DNA of 64,000 nucleotides from Candidatus Latescibacterota bacterium (lineage in GTDB: Bacteria > Latescibacterota > CBDEFO01), in NCBI GenBank assembly GCA_965248755.1, contig OZ252149.1, positions 4,320,001-4,384,000 on the forward strand. Reading direction: 5' to 3'. The notes below the pieces were generated by a model. The model was not told the DNA's origin. It did not search any database and saw nothing but the letters and a program-made list of their open reading frames with translations. Positions 1-7,139 of this stretch are shown here, piece by piece. The translations under genes were made by a program, and so were the position numbers. Positions within the stretch are counted from its first letter, which is position 1; each line of letters starts with the position of its first letter.

Positions 1-2064
1 AAGGAGAATATCGCCCAGGCTCTCAAGAGCAAGCTCCGGATCCCACTCCTCTGTGGTTCTCGTCCAGATGCGCTTAAAGTTAAACTTCTCGGTGGCCCCC
101 AGGAGGTTTTGTGCCTGGTGCGTCTCGCTTTCGAAATCCAGAAAGATGCGCTTGTGTCCTTCGACATCCCAGACCTCGACGACTAATCCCTTTGCGTCCG
201 TCCCCTCCAAGTAATGGTTCAGGCTACCGTCTGCTGTGGTCTTGTTTAGGCTGTACCAGACTGGGAGATTGAAAGCCGAAGGGCCAGATTTATCTATAGC
301 CAAAAGTCCTACATTAGCAGCTTTGGGCATCGGAAGCTCGGCAAAGCCCGGCCCCTGGCCAGATACGTTCCCTGCAAAGACGGGCTCAGGCTTGTGCCCC
401 GTTACTCGTCCTGTCTTCCATTGATTATATGCAGATTTAAGTTTATCTATATATATACGTTCGGATTCGGGCAGAAAATCGGGCAGAAGTTCTATGAACG
501 CATCGTCTATTTCTGCTAATTCTTCAGTTGTTCGCCCCTCTGTCGCGTCTCCCACCAGGTCCTGTCCCAAGCCGTACCACTTATACCCGATAATTTCAGC
601 CACCCACACCTGACGGAAAAAGGTCTTGTATGCAAAAAGATGAATCGGATTACAGTCAACGCCTTTATCGTGGCTCATCAAAAGGTGTCCGTCGTCTCCC
701 ACTTCTAATATCTTCGACGTTCCATATATTAGGCCTATATTTTTGGCCTCCTGGAGGCTCGCCTGTGCTACGTAGCGGAAGTGATTTGGCGGCGTGGTAT
801 GACCTATCTTTCCACCGCTGTCCGCCTTGATATCTGAGATAGTGAAGATGGACCGCGCGTTTGCTCTGACGACCACTCGATCTTCATGGTCAGGAATATC
901 CATGAAGCGGTGCGACAGACGTTCGGCCTCTCCAAAGGCGCGCCCTTCGGCGGTCTCGGGATTAAGGTAAGGCTCAAATTCCCCGTGCATCGTCATATAA
1001 CGGATCAGGTTCCCTGCGTCTTTTTGGAGCCTTCGGGTCTCCGGCCTGTTCTGGGAGAAGATGTCCTCAACGTCTGGCCCCTGGGGGATGCGGCCGTCGT
1101 CGTAGGATTGATACGCGTACGCTACGACCTTTACGGTTCCTTCACTTATGGCTGTACTCTTTGCCTCTTCAAAGCTTACAGGCATAAGCCCCACTCGATA
1201 TCCGCCGTCTTTGCCCCCTGGTCCGAAGTAGAACTCTGCAGTGGACTGTGTGTACTCCCCTATCGCGGGTAGTCCCGATTGAGAGCGGCCGATTAAAATG
1301 GGTGCGAAATCTCCTTCTACCATAGCGGCTGGTTCGTCTTTAAGATCTCCTTCTCCAAAGCGTACCCCAACTGCGTATACCTTGCTCAATCTCCATTCAT
1401 CGGCATCGGCAACAAGCGATTGCAGTTCATTCATCTGGCCCGGTCCAAATTCGTAGGTTCGCACTTGAGATTTAGCGGACCTGAGGTCTTGGATGCTCTC
1501 TACGAGGGCGGAAAAATAGTTTCCCTCGATGCGTCTTCCCGATCCTTTATCCGGGTTGAAAAATAGATTGAAGAGGGCGCGGTTGAAAAACCCCCAGCTT
1601 CCGTTTATGGCCTTTGCCACATAGATCGGTTCTGCGCCTCGCTCGGTGAAGGGGAAGTCCAGGTATCTTATGCCAAGGGCTTGAATCTGATCCTCAGGGT
1701 CCATGTCTATTATGCTCTTACCGTGGTCGGGCTGATAAAGTCCCATTTCATGAGCCTTTTTCAGAGCCTCTGTTGCCGCTATGCGCGCCAGCTCAGCGGC
1801 ACAAGTAGAAGGATTATCGCGGTAAGAGTTTCCGTCGAAGAAGTCCCCGTTATAAGTCGTAATATGCAGATGGAGATCCCCTCCAAAAATGTTGGTCCAC
1901 GCCCCTTTGAGCGTCCCGTTATCCACTTTGTCCCGCAAAAATTGCTCGGCTACCTGGAAGACTTCAACAGGTATATCACCGCCAAGAAGACTGCCCAGAT
2001 CTATGCTGGCAATAATGACATTTGACTGAGTCGAAGTACGGTTTTCCATTCCTTTCAATCCCAT
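1..2064 (-). CDS. Tandem fructose-1,6-bisphosphate aldolase/phosphatase (class V FBPase) family protein, 3'-partial (runs off the left edge)
   Basis: Manual translation from ATG at 2064 is open to base 1 (688 codons); absent from the ORF track. Copy 1 motifs: FTERGAEP, GRSQSGLPAIGE, GLMPVS, YMTMHGEFEP. Copy 2 (from ~850): ISDIKADSGGKIGH, VGDDGHLLMSH, YGLGQDL, FAGNVSGQGPGFAEL, DKSGPSAFNLP, EVWDV. Confidence 0.88.
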   Translation of the reverse strand, partial: MGLKGMENRTSTQSNVIIASIDLGSLLGGDIPVEVFQVAEQFLRDKVDNGTLKGAWTNIFGGDLHLHITTYNGDFFDGNSYRDNPSTCAAELARIAATEALKKAHEMGLYQPDHGKSIIDMDPEDQIQALGIRYLDFPFTERGAEPIYVAKAINGSWGFFNRALFNLFFNPDKGSGRRIEGNYFSALVESIQDLRSAKSQVRTYEFGPGQMNELQSLVADADEWRLSKVYAVGVRFGEGDLKDEPAAMVEGDFAPILIGRSQSGLPAIGEYTQSTAEFYFGPGGKDGGYRVGLMPVSFEEAKSTAISEGTVKVVAYAYQSYDDGRIPQGPDVEDIFSQNRPETRRLQKDAGNLIRYMTMHGEFEPYLNPETAEGRAFGEAERLSHRFMDIPDHEDRVVVRANARSIFTISDIKADSGGKIGHTTPPNHFRYVAQASLQEAKNIGLIYGTSKILEVGDDGHLLMSHDKGVDCNPIHLFAYKTFFRQVWVAEIIGYKWYGLGQDLVGDATEGRTTEELAEIDDAFIELLPDFLPESERIYIDKLKSAYNQWKTGRVTGHKPEPVFAGNVSGQGPGFAELPMPKAANVGLLAIDKSGPSAFNLPVWYSLNKTTADGSLNHYLEGTDAKGLVVEVWDVEGHKRIFLDFESETHQAQNLLGATEKFNFKRIWTRTTEEWDPELALESLGDILL

Positions 2065-2342
2065 GGTTTTTTCTCTCCCTAATCAAGATAATTTGACCAC
2101 ATTCCGACAGGTAATTCTACCTCAATATCGCTCTAGTGTTTGCTCCTTTTCCCAGGATCAGATAAACAAAAACCTGACGTGATAATATAAGACAATTCCA
2201 GTAAAAGGCAAGCAGTTTCTGCTTGGTGCAGGCATATTTAATTCTTTCAAAAGCGCCAGTTGAGTCGGAGCCAAGCGAGGTTTTGAGATCAAGTGTGAGA
2301 ACTGAATGATCCTATTTATTGATCTAAATACACTATTTCGAT

Positions 2343-2390
2343 GTGGCGGCTGCGTTACCCAGCCCTTGGGCGAGGGAATCTGGCACCTAC
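2343..2390 (-). repeat. Degenerate GTAG-type REP-like palindrome
   Basis: Minus strand reads GTAGGTGCCAGATTCCCTCGCCC-AA-GGGCTGGGTAACGCAGCCGCCAC; intergenic, single copy in the window. Confidence 0.35.
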
Positions 2391-2466
2391 ACTATGTTCA
2401 ATCAGTACTCGCTTACCACTGGAAAGAAAATTAAACGATCCTGGCCTGCTGTCCACGTTTCTATCT

Positions 2467-2940
2467 TTACGATGAGGCGGTCTCAGAAGACCAGGAGGCG
2501 GTCTCAGAAGACCAGCTTGGAACCACATCTTCGCCCTCAATCCAGCCTTCTCCTTTTTCCCACACCTCCTTTTTCCATATCGGAACAATCTCTTTCAAGC
2601 GATCTATCGCATATTCACAAGCTTGGAAGGCCTCCCTCCTGTGAGGTGATGCCACAGCGATAGCCACACTAGCCTCTCCTATTTCTAATCTTCCTATGCG
2701 ATGAACGATAGCCAAATCTTTTATTCCCCACTTCTCTTTAATTTCATCCGCTATCTGTTTCATCTTCGTTTCGGCCATCTCTTCGTAAGCCTGATAGTCT
2801 AAGTACCTTACACCCTTTCCAAGAGAATTGTTCCGCACCACGCCTGCAAAGGTAACAACAGCCCCGTCTTCATCTTTCCTAACCATCTTTGCAAGCGCTT
2901 CCACATCTATTTCATCTTTGACTATTTTAAACATAATCAA
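2467..2940 (-). CDS. moaE: Molybdopterin synthase catalytic subunit
   Basis: GAVVTFAGVVR, HRIGRL, SPHRREAF, PIWKKE; adjacent to moaD. Confidence 0.93.
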   Translation of the reverse strand: MIMFKIVKDEIDVEALAKMVRKDEDGAVVTFAGVVRNNSLGKGVRYLDYQAYEEMAETKMKQIADEIKEKWGIKDLAIVHRIGRLEIGEASVAIAVASPHRREAFQACEYAIDRLKEIVPIWKKEVWEKGEGWIEGEDVVPSWSSETASWSSETASS

Positions 2941-2981
2941 CCTCCAACGCAGAAGATATGACAGAGATCACATTTTTACAA

Positions 2982-3227
2982 TTAACCGCCGCTTACCGGA
3001 GGTATAAAGGCTACCTCATCCTTGTCATTTAGCTGTGCTTCAAAGTCGGTGTACTCCTTATTCAGAGCCACAAAGAGATTCCCCTTGAGGTCCGATAGTT
3101 TTGGAAATCGATAGGCGATGTGGTGCCAGAGGTCGCCTACGGTTCCTTTTTCATCTAACTCTATTTCTATCTCATCTGCGCCTACAATATCCCTGCATGA
3201 TGCGAAAAATTTTACGTTGATCTTCAA
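2982..3227 (-). CDS. moaD: Molybdopterin synthase sulfur carrier subunit
   Basis: KINVKFFAS...DEVAFIPPVSGG with C-terminal GG; start reassigned to TTG at 3227. Confidence 0.92.
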   Translation of the reverse strand: MKINVKFFASCRDIVGADEIEIELDEKGTVGDLWHHIAYRFPKLSDLKGNLFVALNKEYTDFEAQLNDKDEVAFIPPVSGG

Positions 3228-3246
3228 TTTGTCGCCCTTTGTACTG

Positions 3247-4323
3247 TCACTGATTTGTCCTTTTTCTCCCGATTTTCTCCCAAAAGGTTCTTCGATACGC
3301 CCCTTTCCGCCAACCCTCATAGCCCACGACGAAAAATATGATCGTGGCCTGAATGACATAGACCATTACCGACGAGACTCCGGCTGCTCTTTGCATGTTC
3401 CCGGCGCCTGCGTTCATAGCTCCGAACAGAAAGGAAGAGAAGATCACGCCTATGGGGTTTAATCTCCCCAAAAGGGCGACAGCAATAGCGGTATATCCGT
3501 AGCCGGGTGAGAACTTTTCGTAGAGGCGATACGTCAATCCAACTAGCTCAACAGCACCTGCTATCCCCGCAAGACCGCCGCTTATCAGCATCGCCAGTAG
3601 GATGTTTTTTTCAACCTTTATCCCTGCGTACCTGGCAGCCTGAGGGTTTAATCCCACGGACCGAATTCTGTAGCCCAAGACTGTCTTGTAGAGCAGAAAA
3701 TAGGCAAAACACGCCAAGACTAAAGCTAAAATCACGCCTGCGTGGAGACGCGTCGGAGGCGCTATTCTTGAGAGTCTTGCTGCCTCATATACAGCGTCGC
3801 TTTGGGGGAATTTGCCCGCCTTTTCCATAAGGGGGCCGTGCACGGCCCAGCTCACTATCTGGATAGCTACAAAATTGAGCATTATGGTGCTGATTACTTC
3901 CTGAACGCCCCTTTTTATCTTCAGTATTGCCGCTATGCCTGCCCATAGACCTCCAGAGATGAACGATACCAAAAGGATCAGGGGAAGGAGGATAAATCCA
4001 GGAGTAGAACTTATCGATGTCCCTATCCAGGCCGCTGAAAGTGCGCCCATATACAATTGGCCCTCAGCCCCGATGTTCCAGACGCCGGACCTGAAAGCCA
4101 AAGCTACCGCAAGCCCTGTAAAAAGCAGGGGACAGGTCTTCAACAAGGTCTCTGAGAGGCTGTATCTGCTCCCGAAGGCTCCATCTAATAGCGCCTCGAA
4201 TGCGGACGTTGGACTCTGTCCCGAAAGATAGATAATGACGCCGTTTATGATCAAAGCCGACACCACAGCGCCAAGTGGAGTCCCCAACGCCCCAACTGTC
4301 CCCCAAAGAGTTCTTCGATCCAT
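3247..4323 (-). CDS. Nucleoside/sugar ABC transporter permease
   Basis: Multiple TM segments, WNIGAEGQ, G-LNP-AARYAGI, GYGYTAIAVALLG; start taken at ATG 4323. Confidence 0.9.
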   Translation of the reverse strand: MDRRTLWGTVGALGTPLGAVVSALIINGVIIYLSGQSPTSAFEALLDGAFGSRYSLSETLLKTCPLLFTGLAVALAFRSGVWNIGAEGQLYMGALSAAWIGTSISSTPGFILLPLILLVSFISGGLWAGIAAILKIKRGVQEVISTIMLNFVAIQIVSWAVHGPLMEKAGKFPQSDAVYEAARLSRIAPPTRLHAGVILALVLACFAYFLLYKTVLGYRIRSVGLNPQAARYAGIKVEKNILLAMLISGGLAGIAGAVELVGLTYRLYEKFSPGYGYTAIAVALLGRLNPIGVIFSSFLFGAMNAGAGNMQRAAGVSSVMVYVIQATIIFFVVGYEGWRKGAYRRTFWEKIGRKRTNQ

Positions 4324-4327
4324 AACT

Positions 4328-5860
4328 TCAAGCCGCCCTTTTTTCACCCATCATCATCAAGCCTATTTCGTCCCTTGGCGTTTTGGGAGACACAATTCCC
4401 ATCAGCTTGCCTTCGAACATAATTCCTACTTTATCGCTTAAGGACAGGAGTTCGTCTAACTCCGTAGAGATCAGGAGCACAGCGCTGCCCCTTTCCCTTG
4501 CCTCCGAAAGTTTGCTATGGACGTATTGCGCCGCCGCTATATCGAGTCCCCTCGTCGGGTTCACGGCTATCAGAATATCTGGCTTTCTTGACAGCTCTCT
4601 GGCGATGACGACCTTTTGTTGATTTCCCCCCGAAAGGGAATCCGCCGAATCGTTTGGCCCTTGGGCCCGAATGTCAAAATCACGGATGGCCTGAAGGGCA
4701 AAATCCCTTATCTTCTGGCTCTTTAAGATGCCCCACTTTGAATATGGAAGATTCCCGTGTGTCCCCAAAATCAGGTTCTCCAAGAGCGAAAATCCCAATA
4801 TAAGGCCCATCTTACGCCTGTCCTGGGGTATATGCGACCCATTGTGTTCAAGCAATTTCTGAACCGACCAGTCCGTCTGTTCTTTTCCCTTAACCAGCAT
4901 CCTGCCTGAAGCTATTTTCCTCAACCCTGACAGGGCATCGGCCGTCTCGGCCTGTCCGTTTCCGTCCACTCCTCCTATGCCAAATATCTCTCCCGATCTG
5001 ATCTGAAGGCTGATTCCGCCGACGACTGGGACGCCGATTTTGTCAAGAACTTTCATATCCGCTACCTCAAGGACGACATCACCTCTCGGCACCTCCTTTT
5101 TTGTTATCTTTCGAGCGGTTTCTCGTCCTACCATCATCCGGGCTAACTTTCTTCTGTCGGTATCTTGAGACTTCATTGTCCCTATTACTTGCCCTCCCCT
5201 TAACACGGTCACCCTATCGCTTATCCTCATAACCTCGCCCAACTTGTGGCTGATGAAGACTATCGAACGCTTGTCCTTTTTGAGCTCCTCCAGTATATCG
5301 AACAGGTCTTCCACTTCTTGAGGAGTCAATACGGCTGTAGGCTCGTCCAGGATCAATATCTTGGCATCTTGATATAAGGCTTTGAGTATTTCCACACGCT
5401 GTTGAGCCCCCACAGAGAGGTCTTTCGCCAGGGCTTTGGGGTCCACCTTCAGTCCGAACCTCCCGGATAGGTCTCCCACGTCCTTTTGGGCCTCAAGTCT
5501 GTCAAGAATTATCCTCTTTAGAACATTCCCCCTACCTTCGTGTTGTACTCCTAATACGACGTTTTCTGCCACAGTGAAGACAGGGACGATCTGAAAGTGC
5601 TGGTGGATCATCCCAATTTTAGAATTTATGGCATCCTTTGGAGACTTGGGATCTATTCTTTTGCCGTTCAGGAGTATCTCTCCTGAATCTGGCCTGTAGA
5701 GGCCGTAGAGGATGTTCATCAGCGTAGTCTTGCCCGCTCCATTCTCACCCAAAAGGGAATGGATTTCGCCCTCCTCAAGTGAAAAATGGACTTCGTTCAG
5801 GGCTATGTTCGAGCCAAATTTCTTATTTATATTTTTAAGTTGCAATAGAGCCAACGTCAA
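4328..5860 (-). CDS. Nucleoside/sugar ABC transporter ATP-binding protein (two ABC domains)
   Basis: GENGAGKTT Walker A, LILDEPTAVL, LSGGNQQK. Confidence 0.93.
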   Translation of the reverse strand: MTLALLQLKNINKKFGSNIALNEVHFSLEEGEIHSLLGENGAGKTTLMNILYGLYRPDSGEILLNGKRIDPKSPKDAINSKIGMIHQHFQIVPVFTVAENVVLGVQHEGRGNVLKRIILDRLEAQKDVGDLSGRFGLKVDPKALAKDLSVGAQQRVEILKALYQDAKILILDEPTAVLTPQEVEDLFDILEELKKDKRSIVFISHKLGEVMRISDRVTVLRGGQVIGTMKSQDTDRRKLARMMVGRETARKITKKEVPRGDVVLEVADMKVLDKIGVPVVGGISLQIRSGEIFGIGGVDGNGQAETADALSGLRKIASGRMLVKGKEQTDWSVQKLLEHNGSHIPQDRRKMGLILGFSLLENLILGTHGNLPYSKWGILKSQKIRDFALQAIRDFDIRAQGPNDSADSLSGGNQQKVVIARELSRKPDILIAVNPTRGLDIAAAQYVHSKLSEARERGSAVLLISTELDELLSLSDKVGIMFEGKLMGIVSPKTPRDEIGLMMMGEKRAA

Positions 5861-6873
5861 AACTTTCCTCTAGGGACCTGAAATTCGCCCGATCTTATCT
5901 TAGCCTCCATCAGGTCTATTCTATCTCTGACGTCTTTGGGTATTCTATCCTCTAACCTGGGATTATAGGCCAAGGAAACTATCCCTTCCTTCATCCCTAA
6001 CCACATAATATCAGGTTTAAACTGTTTATCTTTCACTTTTTTTGCCACTTCTAAAAAGCTACTCGGAATGTCTAAAACAGCGCTTGCTAGGATCACTTCC
6101 GGGGCAATGTGGTTCTGATCTGCGTTTGAGCCAAAGGCATAGACGTTTGCTCTTTCCTTAACGGCCTGAAAGACACCCAGGCCCGCAGCGTCCGCATTGT
6201 GGAGGATGAAATCTGCGCCCTGATCGATAAGAGCCAGTGTCGCCTCCTTGGCCGCGCCTGCGTCCTCCCAGTTGCCTATGTAGGACTTGAGGATTTTAAA
6301 GTCGGGAACTGCATCTTTTGCTCCTCCTTCAAAGGCTATAAACGTGCTCTTGACGGAGGGAATTGCCACTCCGCCGACCACTCCAGCGACCCCTGTTTTG
6401 GACATCAAAGCCGCCATCATTCCCATGAGGTACGTCGCCTCCTCAAGTTCAAAGACCATAGGAGCCACGTTGTCCCTTACAGTACTTCCCGACGTGGTTA
6501 TAAAGACTGTGTTCACAAAATCGGGAGACACCGCCGCGGCGGCGTCCTGAAACTCGAATCCGTGTCCGAAGACTAAATCGAAGCCCCTGCTGGCGTAGTC
6601 TCTGAATCCCTCCTCAAACTCCGCAGGTGTGCCGGTTTGGACCTGACTTATCTGCGCTCCGAGTTCGTCTCTTATCCTCAAGAGTCCCTCGTAAGCTATA
6701 GCGTTCCATCCCGCATCACTGACTGGACCGGGGCTTAAAAGGGCTACCTTGAATTCTTTCTCCTCTGCTTGTTGGTCCTTTTTTGAGCAGCCGATAGCAA
6801 ACAAGAGTGAAAACAGAAGTAATACCGATAAGATAGCTCTGAAAATCGGACCCAAAACGCCTTTGTGTATCAT
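5857..6873 (-). CDS. BMP-family ABC substrate-binding lipoprotein
   Basis: Lipobox FAIGC, DAGWN-AYEGL, GHGFEF, YIGNWED; start taken at ATG 6873. Confidence 0.9.
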   Translation of the reverse strand: MIHKGVLGPIFRAILSVLLLFSLLFAIGCSKKDQQAEEKEFKVALLSPGPVSDAGWNAIAYEGLLRIRDELGAQISQVQTGTPAEFEEGFRDYASRGFDLVFGHGFEFQDAAAAVSPDFVNTVFITTSGSTVRDNVAPMVFELEEATYLMGMMAALMSKTGVAGVVGGVAIPSVKSTFIAFEGGAKDAVPDFKILKSYIGNWEDAGAAKEATLALIDQGADFILHNADAAGLGVFQAVKERANVYAFGSNADQNHIAPEVILASAVLDIPSSFLEVAKKVKDKQFKPDIMWLGMKEGIVSLAYNPRLEDRIPKDVRDRIDLMEAKIRSGEFQVPRGKF

Positions 6874-7139
6874 CGAACCTTCCCTTCTTTGCCTCTCTAA
6901 TGGACATATATAAGAGTGTAACAATTATAATAAATTTATTCTACCGGGTCAAGCCCCTTTTTCTTGGATGAGCACCTGCTCTGAGGGGGGAGGAGTGGTA
7001 CAGCGTACACTCCGCATGCGACCGGAAGAGAAAGTTGGCACCAAACAGCAGAAAGGGCGTCCTACCTAGGCTTTGTGTATAGATACATTATACTGCTCTG
7101 CTCGCTATAACGTTGCTTGCTGAAGCCTTCAATCCATGG

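Follow-up and report, generated by a model that had tools for sequence, protein, structure and literature searches.

The aldolase/phosphatase of fructose 1,6-bisphosphate (FBP) is the textbook example of an enzyme that carries out two reactions in one site, and it is often taken to be ancestral to gluconeogenesis. With residues numbered as in 3T2B, here and below by way of alignment, we take Q242 and the residue next to it to reach over from the partner subunit and bind FBP at its 6-phosphate, an assignment that goes with the enzyme's annotation in UniProt/HAMAP and its structure of 2004. Single-domain members of this class V family (PF01950) include ST0318 (1UMG/3R1M) and the enzyme of Thermoproteus neutrophilus (3T2B-3T2G). 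In the accessible parts of the respective reports, the single-domain enzyme is given as a D4 octamer (bioRxiv 10.1101/749317), both reactions take place in a single site that has three moving loops (PMC4473056), and K232 and Y348 are named as essential for aldolase and phosphatase (PMC5080403). Here, we report a gene for a tandem FBP aldolase/phosphatase in a 64,000-nucleotide stretch of a Candidatus Latescibacterota genome (contig OZ252149.1, positions 4,320,001 to 4,384,000; the window), located on the minus strand at window positions 1..2064. Two class V domains, copy 1 and copy 2, are fused in one chain and hold complementary conserved residues, and we put at roughly two in three the probability that the product is a cytoplasmic enzyme of gluconeogenesis in which both halves together complete the active site.

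The single-domain class V enzymes share their fold with both halves of the tandem protein, and their metal ligands, Schiff-base lysine and tyrosine with copy 2. The tandem protein differs from them in the division of the conserved residues between its halves, in an insert of ~54 aa and in the replacement of D297; a D4 homo-octamer, as described in the accessible part of bioRxiv 10.1101/749317, cannot form from identical domains in this arrangement. It is a likely FBP aldolase/phosphatase that departs from the known form: two domains in 844 aa stand in place of a single ~370-aa domain per chain, R240-x-Q242 is absent in cis with the catalytic residues, and the NCBIfam equivalog NF041126 scores 235.7 bits, short of its cut-off of 520.

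Tandems of a live and a dead copy, with the dead copy under selection, are likewise found in eukaryotic phosphofructokinase (PFK), hexokinase I and receptor tyrosine phosphatase (D1/D2), all duplicated enzymes with unrelated folds; in contrast to these, the dead fructose-1,6-bisphosphatase (FBPase) copy conserves residues that we take to make the partner-subunit contact, and no family-wide effector pocket. The accessible text of PMC7320164 describes D1/D2 of receptor tyrosine phosphatase as such a live/dead pair. CinF of Coxiella burnetii, as presented in the accessible part of PMC8740755, is a class V homologue with a repurposed fold which, unlike the tandem form, consists of one 382-aa domain and acts on a protein of the host; it is likened here by description and not by sequence, and nothing ties it to the tandem form. 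The same dead/live module occurs in giant proteins of Omnitrophota (Archaeovorins; bioRxiv 10.1101/2023.11.21.568195), often together with triosephosphate isomerase (TIM) or glyceraldehyde-3-phosphate dehydrogenase (GAPDH), whereas the protein described here stands alone, with 844 aa and no signal peptide. The accessible text of that preprint names FBPase domains but gives neither their class nor any tandem form or degeneration, and its supplements may list the domain pair. No published tandem or degenerate class V enzyme was found in the open-access literature, and the accessible parts of PMC12965863 and PMC8256278 held nothing on class V; the original prediction, which was made from the letters of the window, had also known of no described example.

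Results

The frame starts with an ATG at window position 2064 and leaves the window at its left edge after 688 aa. Extended leftwards in the whole source genome (G000), a check proposed with the original prediction, it is completed to 844 aa and ends at G000:C1:4319530; residues 689-844, outside the window, carry Y703, K706, D707, D708, D735, R737 and Y823. The predicted run of two consecutive class V domains in one frame is confirmed as two whole folds, and the gene had been missed by the open reading frame track solely by reason of the frame leaving the window; public sources name its homologues FBP aldolase/phosphatase. PF01950 is the only family that Pfam finds in the protein, at 251.6 bits and above the gathering score of 25, in three stretches: model 9-340 for copy 1, and model 3-102 and 100-329 for copy 2. 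Two matches had been expected, and both copies are indeed matched, but copy 2 is split by its insert. Copy 1 comprises residues 13-393 (886..2028; this and all further coordinates of the gene refer to the minus strand), and a short linker with a predicted helix (residues 394-405, 850..885) leads to copy 2, the in-window part of whose catalytic domain covers residues 406-688 (1..849). The insert, helical and ~54 residues long (506-560, 385..549), is found in the loop between GQDL and GN. An AGGGAG ribosome-binding-like sequence, as read from the letters, is positioned 10 bases ahead of the ATG (2075..2080).

The AlphaFold model of the whole chain (predicted template modelling score, pTM, 0.85; mean predicted local distance difference test, pLDDT, 84.8) had clear structure matches to seven FBP aldolase/phosphatase entries only. 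Residues 13-390 of the copy 1 model align to residues 3-364 of 1UMG with Z 32.2 and a root-mean-square deviation (rmsd) of 2.9 Å over 329 residues, and copy 2, folded alone, aligns to 1UMG with Z 36.6 and rmsd 3.0 Å over 343; the best unrelated structures reached Z 8.2 for copy 1 and 7.0 for copy 2. As modelled, both halves are complete class V FBP aldolase/phosphatase folds. Sequence identity is 16% between the copies and 19-33% between the halves and single-domain enzymes. No solved tandem structure was found in the structure searches; in the ESM Atlas the query matched PF01950 clusters only, and a distant module had no usable match there. The loops of copy 2 that are modelled with low confidence are the regions around GN, the Schiff-base lysine and the C-terminus, and these agree with the three moving loops described in the accessible part of PMC4473056.

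Conservation was counted in 65 modules (56 distant and 9 close), 120 close homologues, 37 further homologues and 32 single-domain enzymes; the distant modules were picked partly by Y229/K232/D233/D234, which makes the count of these residues circular there, and the sets of 120 and 37 were not so chosen. All eight positions that we take to be magnesium ligands (D11, H18, D52, D53, Q95, D132, D233 and D234) are present in copy 2, as D415, H422, D457, D458, Q501, D591, D707 and D708. In the window, they are contained in K413-A-D415-x-GG-x-x-G-H422 (799..828; D11, H18), G456-D457-D458 (691..699; D52, D53), Y497-G-L-G-Q501-D502 (559..576; Y91, Q95) and D591-K592 (289..294; D132, K133), next to G565-N566-V-S-G-Q-G-P-G (346..372; G104, N105), and the motifs AD-GG-GH, GDD, GQD, GNV-G-GP and DK are all present as predicted. 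The Y-x-x-K-D-D motif, named as a check on copy 2, was found as Y703-R-G-K706-D707-D708 in an intact Schiff-base loop (EYRGKDDP, residues 702-709) just beyond the window. Y703 and K706 occur in 120/120 close homologues, and the equivalents of Y229/K232/D233/D234 in 120/120 close and 37/37 further homologues. Copy 2 also has Y497, N566, K592, R737 and Y823. Equivalents of D11, H18, D52, D53, Y91, Q95, D132 and K133 are found in 65/65 copy-2 modules, those of G104 and N105 in 63/65, and the C-terminal tyrosine Y823 in 120/120 close homologues and 64/65 modules, with the spacing E-x-x-Y and not E-Y. D297 (of FDGPP) is replaced in copy 2 by N757. This residue is absent from 7/32 single-domain enzymes too, and in the 97 sequences formed by the 32 single-domain enzymes and 65 copy-2 modules it is mutually exclusive with D or N two residues before R266 (97/97): loss of D297 goes with D/N there in 64/64, and its presence with another residue in 33/33. 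Judging by this covariation, the two changes likely compensate for each other within the active site, and the query keeps R737 and D735.

Copy 1 has lost the metal and Schiff-base residues, and its Schiff-base loop is shortened; of the magnesium ligands, only D63 and, weakly, D22 are retained. The motifs listed for this copy in the original prediction were present or absent as stated, except that one aspartate of GDD, D63, is kept. At the GDD place it forms part of D63-L-H65-x-H67 (1864..1878), whose three named residues are found in 119, 117 and 120 of 120 members of the ~840-aa clade and are not kept in distant modules. The FNPDKGSGxRIEG loop (residues 169-181, 1522..1560), modelled with low confidence at 176-180, is conserved in the ~840-aa clade only. 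The sole invariant column of copy 1 is Q262, equivalent to Q242 (65/65 modules), which is also found in 120/120 close homologues and in 37/37 of those further homologues that were not chosen by motif. It belongs to R260-S-Q262-S263-G264 (1273..1287; R240/Q242/S243/G244), a motif that copy 1 likely lends to the active site in copy 2. Among the 65 copy-1 modules, R240 is kept in 56, G244 in 62 and the arginine of ERPSEP in 62. Single-domain enzymes have R240 in 32/32 and Q242 in 31/32, and a glutamine at this place occurs in 1/65 copy-2 modules; the query has V714-E-P716 in copy 2 and the R240-x-Q242 motif in copy 1. E141-R142 of ERGAEP (1639..1644) are likewise present in copy 1 and lost from copy 2.

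The division of residues was quantified over the 80 positions that are at least 90% conserved among the 32 single-domain enzymes. Twenty-five of these are conserved in copy 2 only, five in copy 1 only (E120, R121, R240, Q242 and A247), four in both and nine in neither, and 37 are mixed. In the model, the glutamine follows beta-strand 256-260, and the counterpart strand of copy 2 (710-714) begins just after D708; Q262 thereby appears to be directed away from the metal site of its own domain, an arrangement that agrees with the partner-subunit role taken for Q242. The ratio of nonsynonymous to synonymous substitution rates (dN/dS) was 0.09-0.33 for copy 1 and 0.06-0.14 for copy 2 in 14 related, non-independent pairs, and by this measure both halves are under purifying selection, slightly weaker in copy 1.

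The module is widespread. A homologue search, another proposed check, gave 241 proteins among 7996 scored candidates, and the best 120 of the 241 share 61-97% identity, almost all of them with lengths of 820-875 aa. In GTDB genomes, a scan found 40 loci, of which 28 are in Acidobacteriota (one Aminicenantes), four in Poribacteria and three in Gemmataceae, with one each in Nitrospinota, Latescibacterota (97% identical to the query), Dehalococcoidia, Anaerolineae and one further bacterium. Stand-alone ~840-aa proteins occur in six phyla. In its own phylum, the tandem gene was found only in a genome of the same genus, one other genome has a single-domain enzyme, and 38/41 had no match; this patchiness suggests sideways transfer.

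More distant relatives were found with a copy-1 profile searched against 1.84 billion representatives, which gave 177 matches, 150 of them listed. Among the listed matches longer than 330 aa were 55 proteins of 716-6393 aa with 56 modules in the order copy 1, copy 2, when three truncated proteins and single-domain matches were left out. By a crude rule, a signal peptide is predicted in 44/55 of these, in 36/37 of a second distant set (P0341-P0377) and in 0/121 close sequences; the query likewise has none, and no fused domain other than PF01950. A search from one distant protein gave 53 matches with a TIM domain in 14, and all seven that were named by organism belong to Omnitrophota. Fusions of the dead/live module (P0175-P0308, P0341-P0377) involve TIM, GAPDH, transaldolase, phosphoglucomutase, nucleotidyl transferase, phosphoenolpyruvate carboxykinase, adenylate kinase and CsrA, and P0175 (3495 aa) has two complete modules in residues 1394-3022, that is, four class V domains in one chain. 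P0277, P0298 and P0313 are motif-intact single-domain class V enzymes behind a predicted signal peptide and are possible precursors of the exported tandem form. Linker motifs of Omnitrophota were rare (1 and 4 of the 55 distant proteins) and were not used.

In a tree of 45 rows of 162, copy 1 and copy 2 form one clade each (SH-aLRT 100 and 96), and the result was similar with 86 rows. The two subtrees are largely mirror images, with the stand-alone form nested among the members that have signal peptides. The trees are compatible with a single fusion, which may have arisen by duplication or by fusion of paralogues, both being allowed by the join of two clades; the long branches call for care. 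No split form was found: of 52 matches to copy 1 among shorter proteins, the 10 that were checked are fragments or frameshifted tandem forms, and P0139, the only one of the checked short proteins to cover all of copy 1, has the full tandem P0176 as its closest relative.

The source genome is one contig and 98% complete. It gave no match to FBPase I, FBPase II (GlpX), FBPase III, class II aldolase or PFK (PFK-A) in a search that did not extend to PfkB-type kinases and in which PF00274 was uninformative, with its control also blank. TIM is intact. Two class I (FbaB-type) aldolase genes are in pieces (G000:C1:182871-183230 and 1708789-1709189) and are broken in the genome of the same genus too; one of them adjoins a 946-aa frame of the transaldolase family. 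As controls, 23 were searched of the 25 genomes of the phylum that are at least 90% complete and lack the tandem gene. PFK was found in 23/23, class II aldolase in 14 and an unbroken PF01791 match in 15, and every control has at least one of the latter two. Among carriers of the tandem gene, 38/38 genomes had no class V match of single-domain strength, and 18 carriers chosen for large contigs, many of them kin, had no class II aldolase, and one of them had an intact class I aldolase above cut-off. Since the other families searched gave no intact match in the source genome while the controls have PFK and a class II aldolase or PF01791 match, the tandem protein is likely the route from triose to fructose 6-phosphate in this bacterium.

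Misassembly or a chance fusion is ruled out, because there is no stop between the copies, 241 homologues exist and a contig from a separate study covers the entire gene with 73 substitutions and no gaps; a stop or misassembly at the junction had been named beforehand as what would overturn the fusion. Scans for promoters and terminators near the gene were not above chance (7 against 4.4+/-1.9 and 5 against 3.3+/-1.8). Evidence of expression amounts to five contigs of 151-187 bases that map to copy 2, assembled from three metatranscriptome runs, a signal that is too weak and possibly of DNA origin. In a comparison of 41 loci, no conserved gene neighbourhood was found past lineage synteny. Upstream on the same strand (2467-6924), MoaE and MoaD/ThiS are followed by a BMP-type ABC transporter (binding protein, ATPase and permease), and the end of MoaE holds a short direct duplication, SSETAS twice, at about 2470-2512. 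To the left of the window lie two near-identical transposase frames, one split and one whole, and a second transposase type (locus L001, 5386-6518, 9630-10877 and 10939-12089), presumably of the IS256 and IS3 families. In the same locus (1692-3876), a plus-strand ExbB/ExbD/TonB-like set, read from sequence only, faces a second ExbD-like gene and a TPR-like protein.

Discussion

The complementary split of conserved positions speaks more for an active site shared by the halves than for an inert scaffold. The pseudo-enzyme/enzyme fusion of the original prediction is supported, and its proposal of a scaffold or regulator undersells copy 1. In a homo-octamer, every subunit would be the catalyst of its own site and a donor to that of its partner; after fusion, the catalyst role would have been kept by copy 2 and the donor role by copy 1, and four chains would restore a ring of eight domains in which four sites are live. 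Copy 2 would condense dihydroxyacetone phosphate with glyceraldehyde 3-phosphate via K706 and then take off the 1-phosphate, while Q262 of a copy 1 would hold the 6-phosphate end.

Several observations weigh against this. The in-trans role of Q242 is presumed from the single-domain enzyme and the contact between the halves is deduced, and the positions specific to copy 1 are just five and could be interface residues without contact to the substrate. The NCBIfam score is below cut-off, D297 is replaced, R266 is kept in only 34/65 modules, and Y823 aligns with Y358 in one alignment and not in another. A class V member that has retained its residues yet is not active on FBP is described in the accessible part of PMC8740755. 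Regarding metabolism, FBPase I is absent from 23/23 controls too, so its absence from the source genome is uninformative; that genome has three genes of the transaldolase/fructose 6-phosphate aldolase family, and PfkB-type kinases lay outside the search. FBPase I (5) or GlpX (4) occurs in 9/38 carriers and a PFK-family match in 8/18, and two carrier loci (L033 and L039) are broken inside copy 2. The genome of L033 has a class I FBPase.

It is unlikely, yet the strongest of the alternatives, that copy 1 is a purely structural spacer, which rebuilds the ring and stabilises copy 2 of what would still be an FBP aldolase/phosphatase, with R-x-Q and E-R as interface contacts. The small share of copy-1-specific positions (5/80) agrees with such a role, as do the faster evolution of copy 1 than of copy 2 in 14/14 pairs and its mobile loops, which are shortened or helical in the model. 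Against this, a polar residue that is invariant across modules of ~25-40% identity would be more typical of a ligand contact than of packing, and annotation of the single-domain enzyme gives this glutamine a substrate contact in trans.

Eukaryotic phosphofructokinase and hexokinase I have duplicated halves of which one has turned into an effector site, and the old active site of copy 1 could likewise control copy 2, a prospect that we regard as less likely than a spacer. D63, H65 and H67, which share one face of the former GDD strand, are, with the FNPDKGSGxRIEG loop, nearly invariant in the 120 close homologues; however, distant modules do not keep these residues (the D53 equivalent in 26/56), copy 1 has 92 invariant columns in any case at 60-70% identity, and no PFK that would call for control of a futile cycle was detected in the source genome. 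An effector site would be compatible with a composite active site, in the ~840-aa clade only. A changed substrate, considered in the original prediction, or the loss of one reaction (such as a use of sedoheptulose bisphosphate or of something other than a sugar, or phosphatase activity alone) is the least probable: the loss of D297, the variable R266 of distant modules, the 54-aa insert in a catalytic loop, the other substrates that exported relatives would meet and the precedent of CinF (in the accessible part of PMC8740755) speak for it, but the D297 loss looks compensatory, being tied to D/N before R266 with R737 and D735 kept, the source genome shows no other aldolase/FBPase candidate among the families searched, and distant relatives are fused to TIM and GAPDH.

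With an active site shared by both halves as the preferred reading, one old fusion would have diversified in exported proteins of Omnitrophota and later been trimmed to the stand-alone form, which would have spread sideways and replaced PFK and aldolase in the source genus. A bolder version, which we hold tentatively and at somewhat less than even odds, is that the dead domain is obligatory for the live site, that the module was born in exported Omnitrophota mega-proteins and re-entered the cytoplasm, and that the trimmed 840-aa form became the sole route from triose to hexose in lineages of at least six phyla, letting PFK and ordinary aldolases go.

Sorted naturally into a catalytic half and a probable donor half, the conserved residues can be told apart as acting inside one subunit or across two, and the tandem form lets both roles be mutated separately, as the homo-octamer does not. 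Copy 1 is a clean instance of a pseudo-enzyme whose likely part is to complete an active site and not to regulate it. As a consequence of the sub-cut-off NCBIfam score, carrier genomes can appear to be without aldolase and FBPase, and the stand-alone form gives ready access to the module that it shares with the exported giants of Omnitrophota.

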